64,000 nucleotides of DNA, taken from an uncultured Bacilli bacterium (lineage in GTDB: Bacteria; Bacillota_I; Bacilli_A; RF39; UBA660). The notes beneath the pieces are model-generated. The model was not told the origin of the DNA, searched no databases, and was given only the letters and a program-made list of their open reading frames with translations. The stretch is from positions 5,842 to 69,841 of the forward strand of contig CATYVZ010000008.1 in NCBI GenBank assembly GCA_958413985.1, written 5' to 3'. Below, piece by piece: positions 5,055 through 51,100 of the stretch. Position 1 is the first letter of the stretch; the number at the start of each line of letters is the position of its first letter. A program made the position numbers and the translations under genes.

Positions 5055-5508
5055 CATTAACAAATTATATAAGAAAAAAGAACTAGCTATGCTAGTTCTT
5101 TCCAATTAAGGCGACGCACCACAAGTACGCTTAAACTTTCGTTCGCAACTTAATTGTACACCAGTCGAGGTAAATCCCTCCGGTAATACAATACTATCAC
5201 AATTGAATTGAAATGTCAAATAGTATTGCATTAATATTATATGTATAAAATTAAAAATAATGTAAGTTAAAACATCTATACTTTAAGAGTATTTATAAAA
5301 TTATAAAAATATGTTATACTATAACTAGTTAATGATTATTACTTACTATTTATTTTGCCTAAAAAGTTGTTGTACTTCTTCCTTTAGGGCACCAGATTGA
5401 TTGTTACTCGAACTTTGTAAAAGTTCGAGTTTTTAAGTATAATATAAAGGAAAAAGAAAAGTTATAGTGTATAATATTATTAGGAGGCACTAAAAATTAT
5501 GGATAATA

Positions 5509-9720: not shown

Positions 9721-11943
9721 ATGGAAGCATGGACTAACTTTAAAGGTGAAAACTGGAAAAATAAAATTGATGTCGAAGATTTCATTATAAATAATTATAA
9801 AGAATATTTGGGGGACGATAGTTTTCTTGAGACAATAAGTGATAAAACAAAACAAATTTTAAACCGTGTCGAAAGTTTGACTAAAGAGGAATTAAGAAAA
9901 GGTGTTCTTGACGTTGAAACCAATATAATTTCTGGTATCGACAATTTCAAGCCTGGATATATTGATAAAGATAATGAAGTTATTGTTGGATTACAAACTG
10001 ATCAACCATTAAAAAGAATCGTTAATTTATATGGCGGGATCAGAATGGCGCACGCATCTTTGGAAGCTTACGGATATAAACTTAATCCTGAAATTGATCA
10101 ACATTTCAAAGAATACCGTAAATCACATAACGATGGTGTTTTTGATGTCTATACTGATGAAATTAGAAAAGCTAGAAGTGCTGGGTTATTAACCGGGTTA
10201 CCTGATGCTTATGGTCGAGGTAGAATTATTGGTGATTATCGAAGAATTGCTTTATATGGAATCGATTATTTGATTGCTGAAAAGAAAAAAGATTTAAGCA
10301 ATATAACTAAAATCGACGAAAATACTATTAGATTAAGGGAAGAAGTTAGTGAACAGATTAAAGCTTTAAACGAAATAAAAAGTATGGCTTTAAAATATGA
10401 ATATGATATATCTAAACCAGCTATGAATGCTAAAGAAGCAACCCAATGGCTATATTTTGGTTATTTAGCGGCAATTAAAGAAAACAATGGTGCCGCTATG
10501 AGTTTAGGTAGAACTTCCACCTTTTTAGATATTTACATTGAAAGAGATTTAGAGCAGGGAATTATTACTGAAAAGGAAGCCCAGGAAATAATCGATCAAT
10601 TTGTTATTAAATTAAGAATAGCTAGACATTTAAGAACACCTGAATATAATGAATTATTTGCAGGCGATCCTACTTGGGTAACTGAATCAGTTGGCGGTAT
10701 GGCATTAAATGGTAAAAGTTTAGTAACTAAAAATAGTTTTCGATATTTACACACGTTAATTAATTTAGGATCTTCACCAGAGCCTAATTTAACTATCTTG
10801 TGGTCTAATAAATTGCCAGAAAACTTCAGAAAATATTGCGCTAAAATATCTATTCTGACTGATGCTATCCAATATGAAAATGATGATGTTATGCGTCCAA
10901 TTTATAGTGATGATTATGCTATTGCTTGTTGTGTATCAGCCATGAAAGTTGGAAAACAGATGCAATTTTTCGGTGCTAGATGTAATTTAGCGAAAGCTCT
11001 TTTGTACGCTATAAATGGTGGTTATGACGAAATAACTGGCAAATTAGTTATCGAAGGCTTAGAAAAAATTACTGATGAAATTTTAGATTATGAAAAAGTT
11101 AAAAATGCATATTATAATACTTTAGAAAAAATAGCTAAAATCTATGTTGATGCTATGAACATAATTCACTATATGCACGATAAATATGCTTATGAAAAGT
11201 CACAAATGGCTTTACACGATACTGATGTTGAACATTTAATGGCTTTTGGAGTGGCGGGATTATCAGTCGCCACAGATTCCTTATCTGCGATTAAATATGC
11301 TAAGGTAAAACCTGTTTATAATGCTGAAGGTTTAGCGGTCGATTTTATAATTGATGGTGATTATTCAGCTTATGGTAATGATGATGATGCAGTTGATAGT
11401 ATTGCTGTTGATATCGTTAAAAAATTTATTAAAGAATTGAAAAAATATCCATTGTACAAAAACGCTAAACATACTTTATCAGTATTAACGATAACTTCCA
11501 ATGTTGTCTATGGTAAAAAAACAGGCACTACACCTGATGGTCGTAAAAGAGGTGTTGCATTTGCGCCAGGCGCTAATCCAATGCATGGCCGTGATAAAAG
11601 CGGTGCCTTAGCATCTTTAAACTCAGTTGCTAAAATACCATACAAAGATGTATGCGAGGATGGTGTATCTAATACCTTTTCTATCGTACCTGGTGCTTTA
11701 GGTCATACGGCTGAGGAAAGAATAAATAACTTAGTCAACATTTTAGATGGCTATTTTAAGCAAGGTGCTCATCATTTAAATGTCAATGTTTTAAATCGTG
11801 AAAAGTTGATCGAGGCAATGGCTGATCCTAACAAGTATCCTAATTTAACAATTAGAGTATCTGGTTATGCGGTCCGTTTTAATAGATTAAATAAAGAACA
11901 GCAATTAGAAGTTATAAATAGAACATTTCACGAGGTAATTTAA
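9721..11943 (+). CDS. pflB: formate C-acetyltransferase (pyruvate formate-lyase)
   Basis: 740 aa. C-terminal glycyl-radical motif RVSGYAVRF. Active-site Cys-Cys ([10 protein letters not shown]). RBS AGGAGG. Confidence 0.9.
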
Positions 11944-12644
11944 TGAAGGGCTACATTAATTCGATCGAAACGATGGGCCTAGTTGATGGTCCTGGCATTA
12001 GGTTTGTCGTATTTATGCAGGGATGCAAATTAAGATGCTTATTTTGCCACAACCCAGAAACGTGGCAATTAAATAAAGGGATAGAAATCAGTTCGGATGA
12101 ATTAATTAAACAAATTTTAAAATACAAGAACTATTATGGTAAAGAGGGAGGGGTAACTTTCTCGGGAGGTGAACCCCTTCTTCAATCTTCCTTTTTGCTT
12201 GATATTTTAAAGAAATGTCAAAAAAACAATATCCATACTTGTCTAGATACTGCTGGTTTTGGTGGGACAAATAATGAAGAAATTTTAAAGTATATCGATT
12301 TAGTTATGATGGATATAAAAGCTTTAAAACCTGATAAATATTTTGAAATAGTCGGTCAGAAAATAGATCAATCTTTAGAATTTTTAAAACTATGTCAAAA
12401 ATTAAAAAAAAGACTGTGGATAAGACAAGTAATAATACCTGGTATTAATGATAATGAGGAGTATATTAGAGAATTAAAAAAATTTTTAAGCGATTATGAG
12501 GTTGAAAAAATTGAATTTTTAGCGTATACTACTATTGGTGTTCCTAAATATGAAAAGTTAGGGATACCTTATCGCTTAAGCAACATCGAAGCGATGAATA
12601 AAGAAAAGTGTGAAGAATTATACAAATTATATCAATCAATATAA
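11943..12644 (+). CDS. pflA: pyruvate formate-lyase activating enzyme (radical SAM)
   Basis: CKLRCLFCHNPETW radical-SAM CxxxCxxC cluster. N-terminal GxxDGPGIR motif. ATG overlaps the pflB stop. Confidence 0.9.
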   Translation: MKGYINSIETMGLVDGPGIRFVVFMQGCKLRCLFCHNPETWQLNKGIEISSDELIKQILKYKNYYGKEGGVTFSGGEPLLQSSFLLDILKKCQKNNIHTCLDTAGFGGTNNEEILKYIDLVMMDIKALKPDKYFEIVGQKIDQSLEFLKLCQKLKKRLWIRQVIIPGINDNEEYIRELKKFLSDYEVEKIEFLAYTTIGVPKYEKLGIPYRLSNIEAMNKEKCEELYKLYQSI

Positions 12645-12653
12645 TTTGTACAT

Positions 12654-12728
12654 TGCCCTATGGCCAAGCGGTAAGGCGACGGACTCTGACTCCGTTATTC
12701 ACTAGTTCGAATCTAGTTAGGGCAGCCA
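12654..12728 (+). tRNA. tRNA-Gln (anticodon CTG), encoded CCA
   Basis: Close to Bacillus tRNA-Gln: TGCCCTA acceptor stem, GCCAAGCGGTAAGGC D-arm, anticodon loop with CTG, GTTCGAATC T-loop, TAGGGCA-G-CCA 3' end. Confidence 0.85.
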
Positions 12729-12729
12729 T

Positions 12730-12806
12730 GAGTGATTAGCTCAGTTGGTTAGAGCGTTACGTTGACATCGTAGAGGTCGTAGGTTCGAGTCCTATATCAC
12801 TCACCA
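12730..12806 (+). tRNA. tRNA-Val (anticodon GAC), encoded CCA
   Basis: Acceptor GAGTGAT/ATCACTC. D-arm GCTCAGTTGGTTAGAGC. Anticodon loop TTGACAT. T-arm GGTTCGAGTCC. Starts 1 nt after tRNA-Gln. Confidence 0.8.
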
Positions 12807-12857: not shown

Positions 12858-12887
12858 AGCGATTAAAATATCGCTTTTTTTATTTGT
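12858..12887 (+). terminator. rho-independent terminator after the tRNA pair
   Basis: AGCGAT-taaaat-ATCGCT followed by TTTTTTT. Confidence 0.6.
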
Positions 12888-12996
12888 TTTTTCATAAAAT
12901 ATTGCTTTTGATAGATAAATGATATATAATGAAAATGTAGAAAGTAGGTGTAGTTAGATGTTAAGAAAGAGAAATAAATTAGCAAATAGCACACAT

Positions 12997-13005
12997 GGGG
13001 GGGGG
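12997..13005. repeat. G9 homopolymeric tract (C9 on minus strand) in the promoter region of the pilus/T4SS cluster
   Basis: ACACATGGGGGGGGGCATAACC, 9 consecutive G in a ~28% GC genome. Immediately upstream of a TTTACAA-18nt-TAAAAT promoter-like element. About 113 nt before the 13118 start. Confidence 0.9.
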
Positions 13006-13117
13006 CATAACCCTTTACAAAATAAATAGCTATCTGCCTAAAATAAAACCAATTCCTCACATCAAAAATATCACATATTATTAGAATATTAAAATGATAT
13101 AAAAAAAGATATGTGAA

Positions 13118-14074
13118 ATGGAGGAAATTAAAATGAAAAAAAATGAAATGAAAAAAGGATTAACATTAATAGAATTTTTATTTGGGATCATCATTTTGGC
13201 TGTTATCGGTTTAGGTGGTTATATAATATATGATAAGGTTATCAAAGAACAACCTAATGTTGAAGAACCTGCTAATCCAGATGATCAACAACAAACGGAG
13301 AAACCTACTGAACCAGAAACACCTGATAAAGTAGAAGCAATAAGTTTAAATGATAAGATAGTTACAGACTTACTAGACAAATATAATTTAGAAGGTTCTG
13401 CAACAGATGAGTTTTATACGAACAAAAATATAACTGAAGATTATATACCTAATGATTTTATTCTTGGATTAACTGGAGGATTTTTTGTTTATTTTCAAGA
13501 AGAAGTTGATACAAGCAACACATGTGATGCTGAATTTAGTATTAAAGAGGAAGCTTTTGATGACATTGTAGAATACTTATTTAGTGATATAAATTATAAA
13601 CATGGGTCATTTACCCCGTTTATTAACTTTACAAATGATTTTGTTTTTGGAGAAGGTTCGTATTATCTATACAGTGATGTTGTTACATACGGTTCCGGCG
13701 AATATAGGTTTTGCGTAAATGCTTCTGACAATCCTTATAGTAATAATATTTTTGATGGTTTTATTTATCAAATTCCATATAAAGCCGAAATGATTAATGA
13801 TGGTGAGAAAATAAATATTTATTTCAAAACAATTTTTGCAAAAGTAGTTTATCTTAATGATTCTTTGTATTACGAATATTATCGTGATTATAATAAAACC
13901 AAATATATAGGTGATTGGTTTAATATGAACTTGGATGCTCTTTCATCATCTGAGATAGATCAGCTTGATAGTTATGTTTATAGTTTTGAAAAAAGAAGTG
14001 ATGTTTCAGACTATATAGCTGAAAAACAAAGCGATGGATCATATTATTTAAGTGGCTTTAAAAAAGCTGATTAA
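13118..14074 (+). CDS. prepilin-type (class III signal) pilin-like protein, 318 aa
   Basis: N-terminus KKGLTLIEFLFGIIILAVIG is a perfect match to the prepilin peptidase cleavage/methylation motif (K-G-[FL]-T-L-[IL]-E), followed by a hydrophobic helix and a ~280 aa globular domain. Confidence 0.6.
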   Translation: MEEIKMKKNEMKKGLTLIEFLFGIIILAVIGLGGYIIYDKVIKEQPNVEEPANPDDQQQTEKPTEPETPDKVEAISLNDKIVTDLLDKYNLEGSATDEFYTNKNITEDYIPNDFILGLTGGFFVYFQEEVDTSNTCDAEFSIKEEAFDDIVEYLFSDINYKHGSFTPFINFTNDFVFGEGSYYLYSDVVTYGSGEYRFCVNASDNPYSNNIFDGFIYQIPYKAEMINDGEKINIYFKTIFAKVVYLNDSLYYEYYRDYNKTKYIGDWFNMNLDALSSSEIDQLDSYVYSFEKRSDVSDYIAEKQSDGSYYLSGFKKAD

Positions 14075-14301
14075 AATTCGATAAATTAATAAATCATTTA
14101 GAATAAAACTTATCATGAAATATACTAAAATGTCCAAATTAGCGATATTTAATGTTAAGATAGACATAATAAGAGGATCAAAAAGAATAAAATAAGTATT
14201 CTTTTTGATTTTTTAATTTTACGAAAAATATTTCAATAGTTAATAATTTCAGTTTGGTATTGTAAAAATACCAATAATAAGGTATAATTTATTTATAATA
14301 A

Positions 14302-21070: not shown

Positions 21071-22318
21071 ATGGAAGGAAAATATTTAGTTATCAATGCT
21101 GGTAGTTCATCATTAAAATTTTCGCTATATGAAATGCCAGAAGCAAAAGAATTAGTAAATGGATTGGTTGAAAAGATTGGCGAAGGTGATAGTCGTTTTA
21201 TCTTAAGATTTAATGACAACAAAATCGAAGATTTTTGTAATGCTAATAATCATATCGACGCTGTAAATATCATGCTTAACGGATTAACTAAAAATAATTT
21301 TATTTCAAATATCGATGAAATAAAAGGTATAGGTCATAGAGTTTTGCACGGTGGAGAAAAATATAATGATTCTGTTGTGATTGATGAAAATGTAATAAAT
21401 GATATTAAAAAACTAACTAAGTTAGGTCCCCTTCATCATCCGGGACAGATAGCAGGAATTGAAAGTATGAAACTTATTTTGCCAAATGTTTTACAAGTGG
21501 CGGTCTTTGATACGGCATTTCATCAAACAATGCCAGAAGAAAATTATCTATATGCTGTACCTTATGACTGGTATGCAAAAAATGGTGTCAGAAAATATGG
21601 CTTTCATGGAACCAGCCATAAATATATAACGGAATGTTTAAAGAAACGTTATTCAAAAGATAATGTAAATGCAATTATTTGTCATATAGGTAGTGGTGCA
21701 AGTATTTCGTGCATAAAGGATGGAAAATGTTACGATACATCGATGGGTTTAACACCTTTAGATGGTCTAATAATGGGGACAAGAAGTGGCTCGATTGATC
21801 CATCGATAATAGAATATATTTCAAATGAAAGAAATTTAAATGTACAAGAAATAAATCAAATTTTAAACAAAAACAGTGGTCTGATCGGTATAGCTGGCAA
21901 AAACGATTTTAGAGATCTGACAGCTTTGGCAGAAGCAGGAAATCGAAAAGCTCAATTAGCCATTTTGATGATGAGAAAATCTATAATTAAATATATTGCT
22001 CAATATTATTTTGAACTTAACGGAAACATAGATGCCATAGTTTTTACAGCAGGAATTGGCGAAAATAGAGTTGAATTAAGAGAAAAAATAATTGAAGACA
22101 TTTCTAAACCAATGGGAATATCTTTAAATAAAGAAGCCAATGATAACATTTCGCGTTCTAAAGCTAATCGTTCTGGTAAAATATCAACAGACAATTCAAA
22201 AATAGAAGTATTAGTAATTCCAACAGATGAAGAATATATTATTTTAAAAGATACATACAATTTAAGTAAAACTGTCACTATCGAAAATAGTAAAGTTTTG
22301 AAAAATATATTAAAATAA
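21071..22318 (+). CDS. ackA: acetate kinase
   Basis: Canonical N-terminus MEGKYLVINAGSSSLKFSLYE. Motifs VLHGGEKYNDSVVIDENV and HIGSGASISCIKDGKCYDTSMG. 415 aa. TTGCAT-17-TATTAT promoter upstream. Confidence 0.9.
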   Translation: MEGKYLVINAGSSSLKFSLYEMPEAKELVNGLVEKIGEGDSRFILRFNDNKIEDFCNANNHIDAVNIMLNGLTKNNFISNIDEIKGIGHRVLHGGEKYNDSVVIDENVINDIKKLTKLGPLHHPGQIAGIESMKLILPNVLQVAVFDTAFHQTMPEENYLYAVPYDWYAKNGVRKYGFHGTSHKYITECLKKRYSKDNVNAIICHIGSGASISCIKDGKCYDTSMGLTPLDGLIMGTRSGSIDPSIIEYISNERNLNVQEINQILNKNSGLIGIAGKNDFRDLTALAEAGNRKAQLAILMMRKSIIKYIAQYYFELNGNIDAIVFTAGIGENRVELREKIIEDISKPMGISLNKEANDNISRSKANRSGKISTDNSKIEVLVIPTDEEYIILKDTYNLSKTVTIENSKVLKNILK

Positions 22319-41711: not shown

Positions 41712-42055
41712 GGGGTCGTCTAGTTTCGACGGAAACACTATTTTTAAAGGGCAAGTCGTCAAGGTATGACGTTATAATCCAAATTAAAAATAACTGGAAA
41801 CAGAAATCAATTAGCTTTCGCTTAATAATTTAGAAGGCTGCTTCTTTATTTCTTTACTTACGAGAAATAAAAGAGGCTCGATTAGTGAGTTATATCGATA
41901 GTTTTTTTTCTAGGATTATCGATGAATTTAATAGAAATTACTGAGTGAAATTTTGATAGTTTATTATCACTTAGGACAACAACAAATTATCTAAACTTGT
42001 AGAACTTTAATCTTGGTATTTTCGGACAGGGGTGCGATTCCCCTCGACTCCACCA
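41712..42055 (+). ncRNA. ssrA: tmRNA (ssrA)
   Basis: 5' GGGGTCG pairs with 3' CGACTCCACCA. tRNA-like T-arm GGACAGGGGTGCGATTCCCCTC. Internal reading frame ending GCT TTC GCT TAA TAA (tag ending ...LAFA-stop-stop). Length 344 nt. Confidence 0.8.
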
Positions 42056-51017: not shown

Positions 51018-51100
51018 TGTGTAGAGACCTCTCTACAACCGCACTGAAAAGGTTTAAAAGTTCAATCACCTTAAAGGCGAGTCTTAGATCAAAGGAGGTA
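51018..51100 (+). promoter_or_regulatory. candidate rplU (L21) leader structure
   Basis: Hairpin GTAGAG-acct-CTCTAC plus downstream pairing segments between a promoter-like TTAGAAT and the RBS AGGAGG. In the position of the Firmicutes L21 leader. Confidence 0.3.

Follow-up and report, generated by a model that had tools for sequence, protein, structure and literature searches.

The run of nine G residues that precedes a type IV pilin-like gene in the 64 kb stretch of DNA analyzed here (the window) was found to lie inside a short leader ORF, which is conserved, unannotated and previously undescribed. On balance, we favor the interpretation that the run serves as a slipped-strand frameshift switch in this leader ORF, between a conserved promoter and the pilin-like gene. 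That the tract is a frameshift switch within the conserved ORF appears highly likely from the sequence comparisons presented below, and the coupling of the leader to pilin expression, through a hairpin predicted to sequester the ribosome-binding site of the pilin gene, may be put at about even chances.

The G tract and its leader reading frame

The run GGGGGGGGG was verified on the forward strand of the window, and its description in the first-pass annotation as a strong compositional outlier held. The G+C content of the window is 29.0%, and the tract is the only run of G or C longer than 5 nt in the 64 kb, unlike A/T runs of 6 to 10 nt, which are common. The number of G runs of nine or more expected by chance in the window ranges from 0.006 (independent bases) to 0.009 (first-order Markov model). 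Glycine is encoded by GGG less often than by any other of its codons in the window (6.6%), and at this usage the probability of three consecutive GGG codons is about 3e-4. Of the 28 G/C runs of at least 6 nt in 184 kb of related loci, 26 were leader tracts and two lay elsewhere, a count that is enriched by collection, as these loci were picked for their leader content. An artifact of assembly or sequencing was ruled out, the G9 form being common to four independent assemblies (the window, L001, L002 and L003) with different flanking SNPs, six in number. With nine residues, the tract falls within the length of about 7 or more G/C at which slippage is expected of a contingency locus.

The features surrounding the tract are collected in Table 1. 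Homology with related leader copies begins at about 12887, at a blastn breakpoint just past the intrinsic terminator that closes the upstream unit. The sole promoter conserved throughout the family, TTGyTT-17-TATAAT, is present in all leader copies as well as in the leaderless paralogues L010-L012, and its -10 hexamer in the window lies 67 nt upstream of the tract. With no more than 3 of 6 consensus positions in its -35 hexamer, this promoter is missing from the list given by our promoter scan. Transcription from it is predicted to begin at about 12937. The ribosome-binding site of the leader ORF, AAAGTAGGTG, is identical to the canonical AAAGGAGGTG at 9 of 10 positions, and the block from this site to the start codon (GAAAGTAGGTGyAGTwAGATG) is kept in all copies. 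Every copy thus has the AAAGTAGGTG-7-ATG arrangement of a short upstream ORF with its own ribosome-binding site, as known from ermC-like leaders. The stretch that follows the tract is rich in C and poor in G, and its excess of C over G ranks in the top 0.08% among 79-nt windows.

Table 1. Features of the leader region and its neighborhood (positions in the window)
Feature	Position	Strand	Description
pflB	9721-11943		Upstream neighbor
pflA	11943-12644		Upstream neighbor
tRNA-Gln and tRNA-Val	12654-12806		Between pflA and the terminator
Intrinsic terminator	12858-12885	+	From terminator scan; closes the upstream pflBA/tRNA-Gln/tRNA-Val unit
Conserved promoter	12902-12930	+	-35 TTGCTT (12902-12907), 17-nt spacer, -10 TATAAT (12925-12930)
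Leader ORF ribosome-binding site	12941-12950	+	AAAGTAGGTG, 7 nt before ATG 12958
Leader ORF, G9 form	12958-13029	+	23 codons (MLRKRNKLANSTHGGGHNPLQNK); stop TAG 13027-13029; truncated, out-of-frame
Full-length leader ORF (G8 or G11)	12958-13084	+	41 aa, MLRKRNKLANSTHGGGITLYKINSYLPKIKPIPHIKNITYY; stop TAG 13082-13084
G9 tract	12997-13005	+	Codons GGG GGG GGG of the leader ORF; proposed slipped-strand frameshift site
C-rich, G-poor stretch	13006-13084	+	18 C and 3 G in 79 nt; rut-like composition
Hairpin 5' arms (predicted)	13053-13079	+	Anti-Shine-Dalgarno (anti-SD) UUCCUC (13053-13058) and UCACAUAUU (13071-13079); inside the long frame
Hairpin 3' arms (predicted)	13108-13126	+	GAUAUGUGA (13108-13116) and pilin ribosome-binding site GGAGGAA (13120-13126)
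Type IV pilin-like gene	13133-14074	+	313 aa, MKKNEMKKG/LTLIEF...; first gene of the Tad-like module
Tad-like module	13.1-20.7 kb		DUF5411, RcpC/CpaB, T2SSE-type ATPase and two unassigned ORFs
ackA	21071-22318		Housekeeping acetate kinase, between the Tad-like and T4SS-like modules
T4SS-like module	26.5-36.2 kb		TrbL/VirB6, PrgI, VirB4-like ATPase, SpoIID+CHAP hydrolase, VirD4-type coupling protein

An antisense ORF at 12863-13060 (65 aa, GTG start) was dismissed; it has no ribosome-binding site and would be disrupted by the observed length changes. A search of the leader against Rfam gave no match, either at gathering thresholds or at E values up to 10, so that known riboswitches and leaders, the c-di-GMP riboswitch among them, were excluded. 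Elsewhere in the window, a DUF3800-I RNA was recognized by Rfam at 5066-5191 on the reverse strand (67.3 bits against a gathering score of 44.2), together with a tmRNA at 41712-42055 (tag GNRNQLAFA) and an L21 leader at 51027-51094.

Leader copies, reading frame and tract length

To collect related copies, the 20-mer directly 5' of the tract (ATTAGCAAATAGCACACATG) was used as the query, so that no G run was required, and further loci were added through protein-identity look-ups. The 20-mer search detected the element five times in one GTDB genome, "uncultured Bacilli bacterium" (CALVXM01), distributed over four contigs, and also in five relevant metagenome contigs. Matches in Nostoc proved to be an unrelated conserved sequence without a G tract, other tract-less matches were likewise unrelated, and the element was absent from viral contigs. 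All true copies share one order of parts, namely TTGyTT-17-TATAAT, GAAAGTAGGTGyAGTwAGATG, a short variable stretch, TTAGCAAATAGCACACAT, the G run, CAwAACCTTTAyA and CCTCACATyAAAAATrTmACwTATTATTA(A/G). A type IV pilin-like gene (MKKGFTLIELLAVIIILAIIALIATP...; MKKGFTLIELL...) follows downstream at a distance of either about 50 nt or about 95-105 nt, the longer spacers including an extra hairpin. In the long-spacer copies L017, L032, L063, L086 and L093, this is a near-perfect hairpin of 10-13 bp (TTGACTTATA...TATAAGTTAA) between the leader stop and the pilin gene. The same sequence contains a good match to a promoter, TTGACT-17-TAAAAT, which could be a second, leader-independent promoter in these copies. 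Two copies, L025 and L096, are orphan leaders with the promoter, the leader ORF and the conserved tail, and no pilin gene downstream. The distant pilin-like paralogues L010-L012 and L090 have the same promoter right before the gene, with neither leader nor tract; in comparison, the leader has the appearance of an insertion that separates the promoter from the gene.

Five contigs from different samples (L004-L007 and L009) have their first base inside the leader, 61 or 36 nt before the pilin ATG. An invertible promoter, which was considered on account of such breaks, was rejected; only weak AT-rich inverted repeats of 71% complementarity were present. A better explanation for the breaks is that the leader forms a multi-copy repeat whose copies adjoin divergent pilin alleles and contexts. 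Assemblies tend to break at this repeated leader, and the truncated leader forms of 17-23 aa escape annotation pipelines.

All copies have one frame that continues without interruption from the tract to a conserved TAT TAT TAG/TAA stop, which is preserved across the change between TAG and TAA; this frame encodes 41-46 aa with the consensus MLENKVTPxLANSTHGGGKNLYxxNCYLFNLKINKLPHIKNVTYY. It is opened by tract lengths of 2 mod 3, or of 0 mod 3 in the L068 lineage, which carries a 1-nt deletion. When translated in silico, the window leader gave products of 41 aa with G8, 23 aa with G9 and 17 aa with G10, so that a change in length alters the product of the leader ORF. Indels outside the tract are all multiples of 3, except in L059 and L068, where frame-compensating deletions of single bases adjoin the tract. 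With a profile built from the conceptual peptides, 25 in-frame versions were recovered from the protein collection, and the window-type G8 in-frame allele was found in nature (L075, protein P0023). In some in-frame lineages the Gly run is broken or replaced (HGAGQ, HGWQ, NYERG, HKRDE and HKSDN), and a GGAGGTGG-type tract would represent a locked in-frame form. Such in-frame, Gly-replaced versions mark the long frame as the maintained one, to which the pure G run adds a switch; these tract-free, permanently in-frame lineages show that the module has a role beyond phase variation.

The conservation of this frame raises the question of whether the 41-46-aa product is itself a functional small protein, a regulator or pilus accessory that the tract toggles with no coupling to pilin translation. 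The product does form a conserved family, with an invariant LANS and a near-invariant PHIKNVTYY, its ORF integrity is maintained, and the tract-free in-frame lineages speak for it as well. Against this, substitutions are spread evenly over the codon positions (18/16/17 and 10/13/8), with no excess at third positions, and we therefore claim the integrity of the ORF and not purifying selection on the peptide; the conservation could lie at the RNA or DNA level. AF2 returned a pLDDT of 55 and no secondary structure, no relative was found in Pfam, NCBIfam or PDB sequences, and a profile search of 1.84 billion representatives yielded a handful of true members and low-complexity noise. An unfolded prediction and a tiny family with no known relatives fit a leader peptide better than a folded protein. 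Moreover, the predicted anti-SD arms fall on the conserved C-terminal codons, and in all cases the leader ORF directly precedes, in the same orientation, a pilin gene or what remains of one. A functional small protein thus appears unlikely, and we continue with the view that the frame serves as a leader.

The length of the tract, as read from consensus assemblies, varies from 5 to 10 across the related copies. Near-identical window-type leaders carry G8 (L075), G9 (the window and L001-L003) or G10 (L008 and L061). Among the other copies, we found G5 in L086 and L087, G6 in L017, L025, L068, L070 and L074, G7 in L032 and L063, and G9 in L047 and L088, along with the interrupted forms G6TGG (L059), G8AGG (L076-L085) and GAGAGGGG (L093-L097). 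Comparison of tract length among relatives, which the first-pass annotation had proposed as a check, revealed different lengths at orthologous loci in two cases. L047 (G9) and L086/L087 (G5) are orthologous, with 97.7% identity over 3.7 kb and identical leader flanks (L047 versus L086), and L068 (G6) and L088 (G9) share 99.3% identity over 1260 nt, the sole gap being 3 nt in the tract. Polymorphism at the same locus in close relatives, as is expected of a contingency locus, is therefore present in two orthologous pairs, and the window's own locus is G9 in 4 of the 4 independent assemblies that reach the tract. Of the phase-variation switch that had been proposed, what stands is a hypermutable, length-polymorphic switch of the slippage type that is tied to a surface-filament gene, and not the promoter-adjacent mechanism.

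The stability of the window locus at G9 would also fit a non-adaptive hotspot, in which the tract drifts neutrally or slippage of the polymerase or the ribosome makes the alleles equivalent. The frames of the observed tracts were likewise indistinguishable from random, with 2 of 12 in frame, and a bias toward OFF frames was not significant (P = 0.18). Such an explanation is nevertheless improbable. The G runs are used in an extremely non-random manner in these genomes, which have about 28% GC and are otherwise devoid of G/C runs. Diverged paralogues keep the tract at an identical codon position, the codon concerned, GGG, is the least used for Gly, and the long leader frame is open in every copy.

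The pilin-like gene and the predicted leader hairpin

The pilin-like protein passes the TIGR02532 prepilin domain (16.8 bits against a cut-off of 16.3) and reaches 18 bits with the Pfam N_methyl model, below its cut-off of 21.2. It carries a class III signal, KKG/LTLIEFLFGIIILAVIGL, with Gly at -1, Glu at +5 and a hydrophobic helix. The exact protein occurs on 11 contigs; P0033, a related member of the cluster, has 314 aa and is thus one residue different in length. The gene likely starts at 13133, preceded by GGAGG at 13120-13124. Its distance from the tract is 112 nt when measured from the tract end to the first in-frame ATG (13118) and 127 nt to the likely start. The region 13133-13157 reads ATG-A8-TG...ATG-A6-GG and thus contains two in-frame ATGs 15 nt apart and two A runs.

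The pilus/T4SS cluster of about 23 kb that this gene was said to open is real and is composite, with ackA between a Tad-like and a T4SS-like module (Table 1). No integrase or relaxase domain was matched in the cluster ORFs scanned. In L008, the downstream cluster is 99.3% identical to the window at the nucleotide level from 14022 on, the pilin body shows only 62% protein identity to the window pilin, and the upstream context is enolase/FtsK, not pflBA and the tRNAs, with homology beginning exactly at the leader promoter (12887). This pattern suggests either an exchange or rearrangement of pilin cassettes at the repeated leader, or a chimeric assembly. In L089:1-60, the pilin gene is 100% identical from 13136 and is preceded by a different 28 nt (CAGGAGGTGTTTTTATGCGC...) without a leader; as it lies at a contig edge, this could be a leaderless allele or an assembly artifact. 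A second copy of the pilin body, in L090-L092, matches window positions 13201-14214 at 96%, is split into 170 + 142 aa and has a non-pilin N-terminus (MNNRVLKVLA...), with neither leader nor G tract; its upstream neighbors are a C39-peptidase ABC transporter and three small ORFs, and rpsU comes after it. In L032 and L047, two paralogous pilin genes of the Bacilli MAG, the pilin start shows TGA where the orthologue L086 has GGA, for the essential Gly -1 of the prepilin site, and the leaders of both are out-of-frame (G7 and G9). These are either pseudogenized silent copies or an assembly error common to a collapsed repeat.

We examined the predicted structure of the leader RNA and its relation to the ribosome-binding site of the pilin gene. 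The leader RNA folds at -40.8 kcal/mol (z = -4.8 against shuffles). Its 3' domain, at -16 kcal/mol (z = -3.7), pairs UUCCUC (13053-13058) with GAGGAA (13121-13126) and UCACAUAUU with GAUAUGUGA, and the 5' arms fall on the codons for Pro-His and Ile/Val-Thr-Tyr-Tyr. In the minimum free energy (MFE) structures of L076, L086, L032 and L093, whose spacers differ, GUGAGG is paired in an equivalent way with CCUCAC or CCUCAU, and an inner helix is formed as well. The sequestering hairpin is thus predicted in three spacer architectures, with z values of -3.7 in the window, -3.35 in L076 and -4.3 in L093. RNAalifold analysis of the short-spacer copies retained the outer helix and gave 2 compensatory pairs in the inner helix, from effectively two informative lineages; the anti-SD/SD helix is mostly invariant and hence offers little covariation. 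When folding was constrained, the pilin ribosome-binding site was 2% unpaired with the RNA free or with the short G9 or G10 ORF held open, and 99% unpaired with the long G8 ORF held open.

These data suggest the following scheme. On a transcript from about 12937, ribosomes would load at the strong AAAGTAGGTG and initiate at ATG 12958. With a tract of 2 mod 3 (G8 or G11), they would translate 41 codons to the TAG at 13082-13084, across UUCCUC/CCUCAC and UCACAUAUU. Their passage would free the pilin ribosome-binding region (13108-13126) and cover the C-rich stretch, turning the pilin gene ON and, probably along with it, the operon as a whole. With G9 (stop 13027-13029) or G10 (stop at about 13010), ribosomes would be released at least 23 nt before the anti-SD, the hairpin would form, and the naked C-rich RNA could load Rho, giving an OFF or low state. 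Rho polarity on the operon after such premature termination is a plausible second route. We infer that in-frame means ON and out-of-frame means OFF under either route, the polarity of the coupling being the least secure step, and the G9 allele of the window is predicted to be in the OFF frame.

A predicted transcribed position and a strongly structured leader would also be compatible with the G run acting as RNA, as a target of a C/U-rich sRNA or of the leader's own anti-SD, with tract length tuning expression gradually. The G run does pair locally with CCCUU in the MFE structure, and RepG provides a precedent in the H. pylori tlpB leader (PMC8295292). We consider such a mode of action doubtful at best, since the ORF that surrounds the tract looks translated and has a strong ribosome-binding site, lineages in which the G run is replaced by other codons retain the rest of the module, and the G run is not paired with the anti-SD in the MFE structure.

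The remaining explanation, that of the first-pass annotation, was that a promoter-proximal tract alters transcription, through its length, from a TTTACAA-18-TAAAAT element just downstream. Tracts of poly-G or poly-C associated with promoters are indeed a known class, with Bordetella fim and Neisseria porA/opc as examples, and the string is present in the window (13014-13020 and 13039-13044). This explanation is very improbable, as the element (TTTACA-19-TAAAAT or TTACAA-18-TAAAAT when read as hexamers) is not listed by the promoter scan of the window, is not conserved in related copies (those of the Bacilli-MAG type read TTTATAG...), and has the tract upstream of its -35, outside the spacer, where length leaves hexamer spacing unaffected; the tract does not abut a working promoter, nor does it lie between a -35 and a -10 or between an activator site and a core promoter, as promoter-embedded tracts do, but is embedded in an ORF that has its own conserved ribosome-binding site and the conserved promoter upstream. 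Although a start site upstream of the tract had been named as counting against a switch, such a start is what the conserved promoter would lead one to expect, and the length of the tract should nonetheless have an effect, since the number of G residues determines the frame in which the leader ORF is read.

Relation to known switches and leader peptides

Homopolymer phase variation is textbook knowledge for Neisseria, Haemophilus, Campylobacter, Helicobacter and mycoplasmas, and to our knowledge it has hardly been documented for uncultured commensal Bacilli. Natural isolates provide examples of G8, G9 and G10 at the poly-G genes of C. jejuni (PMC11955535) and of ON and OFF tract lengths at Neisseria pgtA (PMC2193922). 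The Campylobacter jejuni and Neisseria loci (pilC, pgtA and lgt) resemble the leader tract in that the G tract is 8-10 nt long and slippage truncates the product, as well as in the AT-rich genome and the association with surface structures. In contrast to those loci, the frameshifted ORF here is a leader of 41-46 codons and not the effector gene, and the effect on the pilin must therefore be indirect, through translational unmasking or polarity.

In the ermC model, a ribosome on the hairpin arm within the leader ORF frees the downstream ribosome-binding site. The leader shares with ermC and cat attenuation a short ORF with its own ribosome-binding site, and the predicted sequestering hairpin, with one arm inside the ORF, would be a further likeness. 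The trigger is different, being drug-induced stalling in ermC and, as proposed here, a heritable frameshift on which the arrival of ribosomes at the arm depends.

Variable repeats located downstream of the start site in a structured leader are a further point of comparison. Moraxella catarrhalis uspA1 has a poly-G tract in its transcribed 5' leader. The G-repeat of H. pylori tlpB, the target of RepG (PMC8295292), and the heptamer repeats of H. influenzae hmw1A (PMC12721329) are length-variable repeats in transcribed leaders that act post-transcriptionally. None of the repeats of tlpB, hmw1A and uspA1 is translated, and their effects come about by sRNA pairing, RNase III processing or transcript level, whereas the leader tract would be read as codons, the predicted variable being frame and not length as such.

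As a family, the leader copies can be compared with the vlp genes of Mycoplasma hyorhinis, which are dispersed paralogues with a shared 5' cassette and individual poly-A homopolymers. Like vlp, the pilin family combines a near-identical promoter, leader and N-terminal signal region with divergent bodies, so that combinatorial ON/OFF states are possible. The vlp tract is located in the promoter spacer and controls lipoproteins, in contrast to the leader ORF and type IV pilin-like proteins described here. In the literature searched, we found no described mutable tract in a leader ORF that gates a downstream gene, and none that gates a pilin.

Taken together, we tentatively put forward, at somewhat less than even chances, a previously undescribed module in which a hypermutable poly-G tract decides translation through an anti-Shine-Dalgarno/rut-like segment and thereby gives each dispersed pilin-like gene its own heritable, reversible ON/OFF state, forming a combinatorial pilin "phasome" in uncultured low-GC gut Bacilli, commensals of the Firmicutes type. 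If the coupling holds, a contingency locus and leader-peptide attenuation would be joined in one compact module. Such a module would explain the independent variation of several pilin-like surface filaments, and tract length modulo 3 would provide a rule by which the ON/OFF states of pili may be read from metagenomes.
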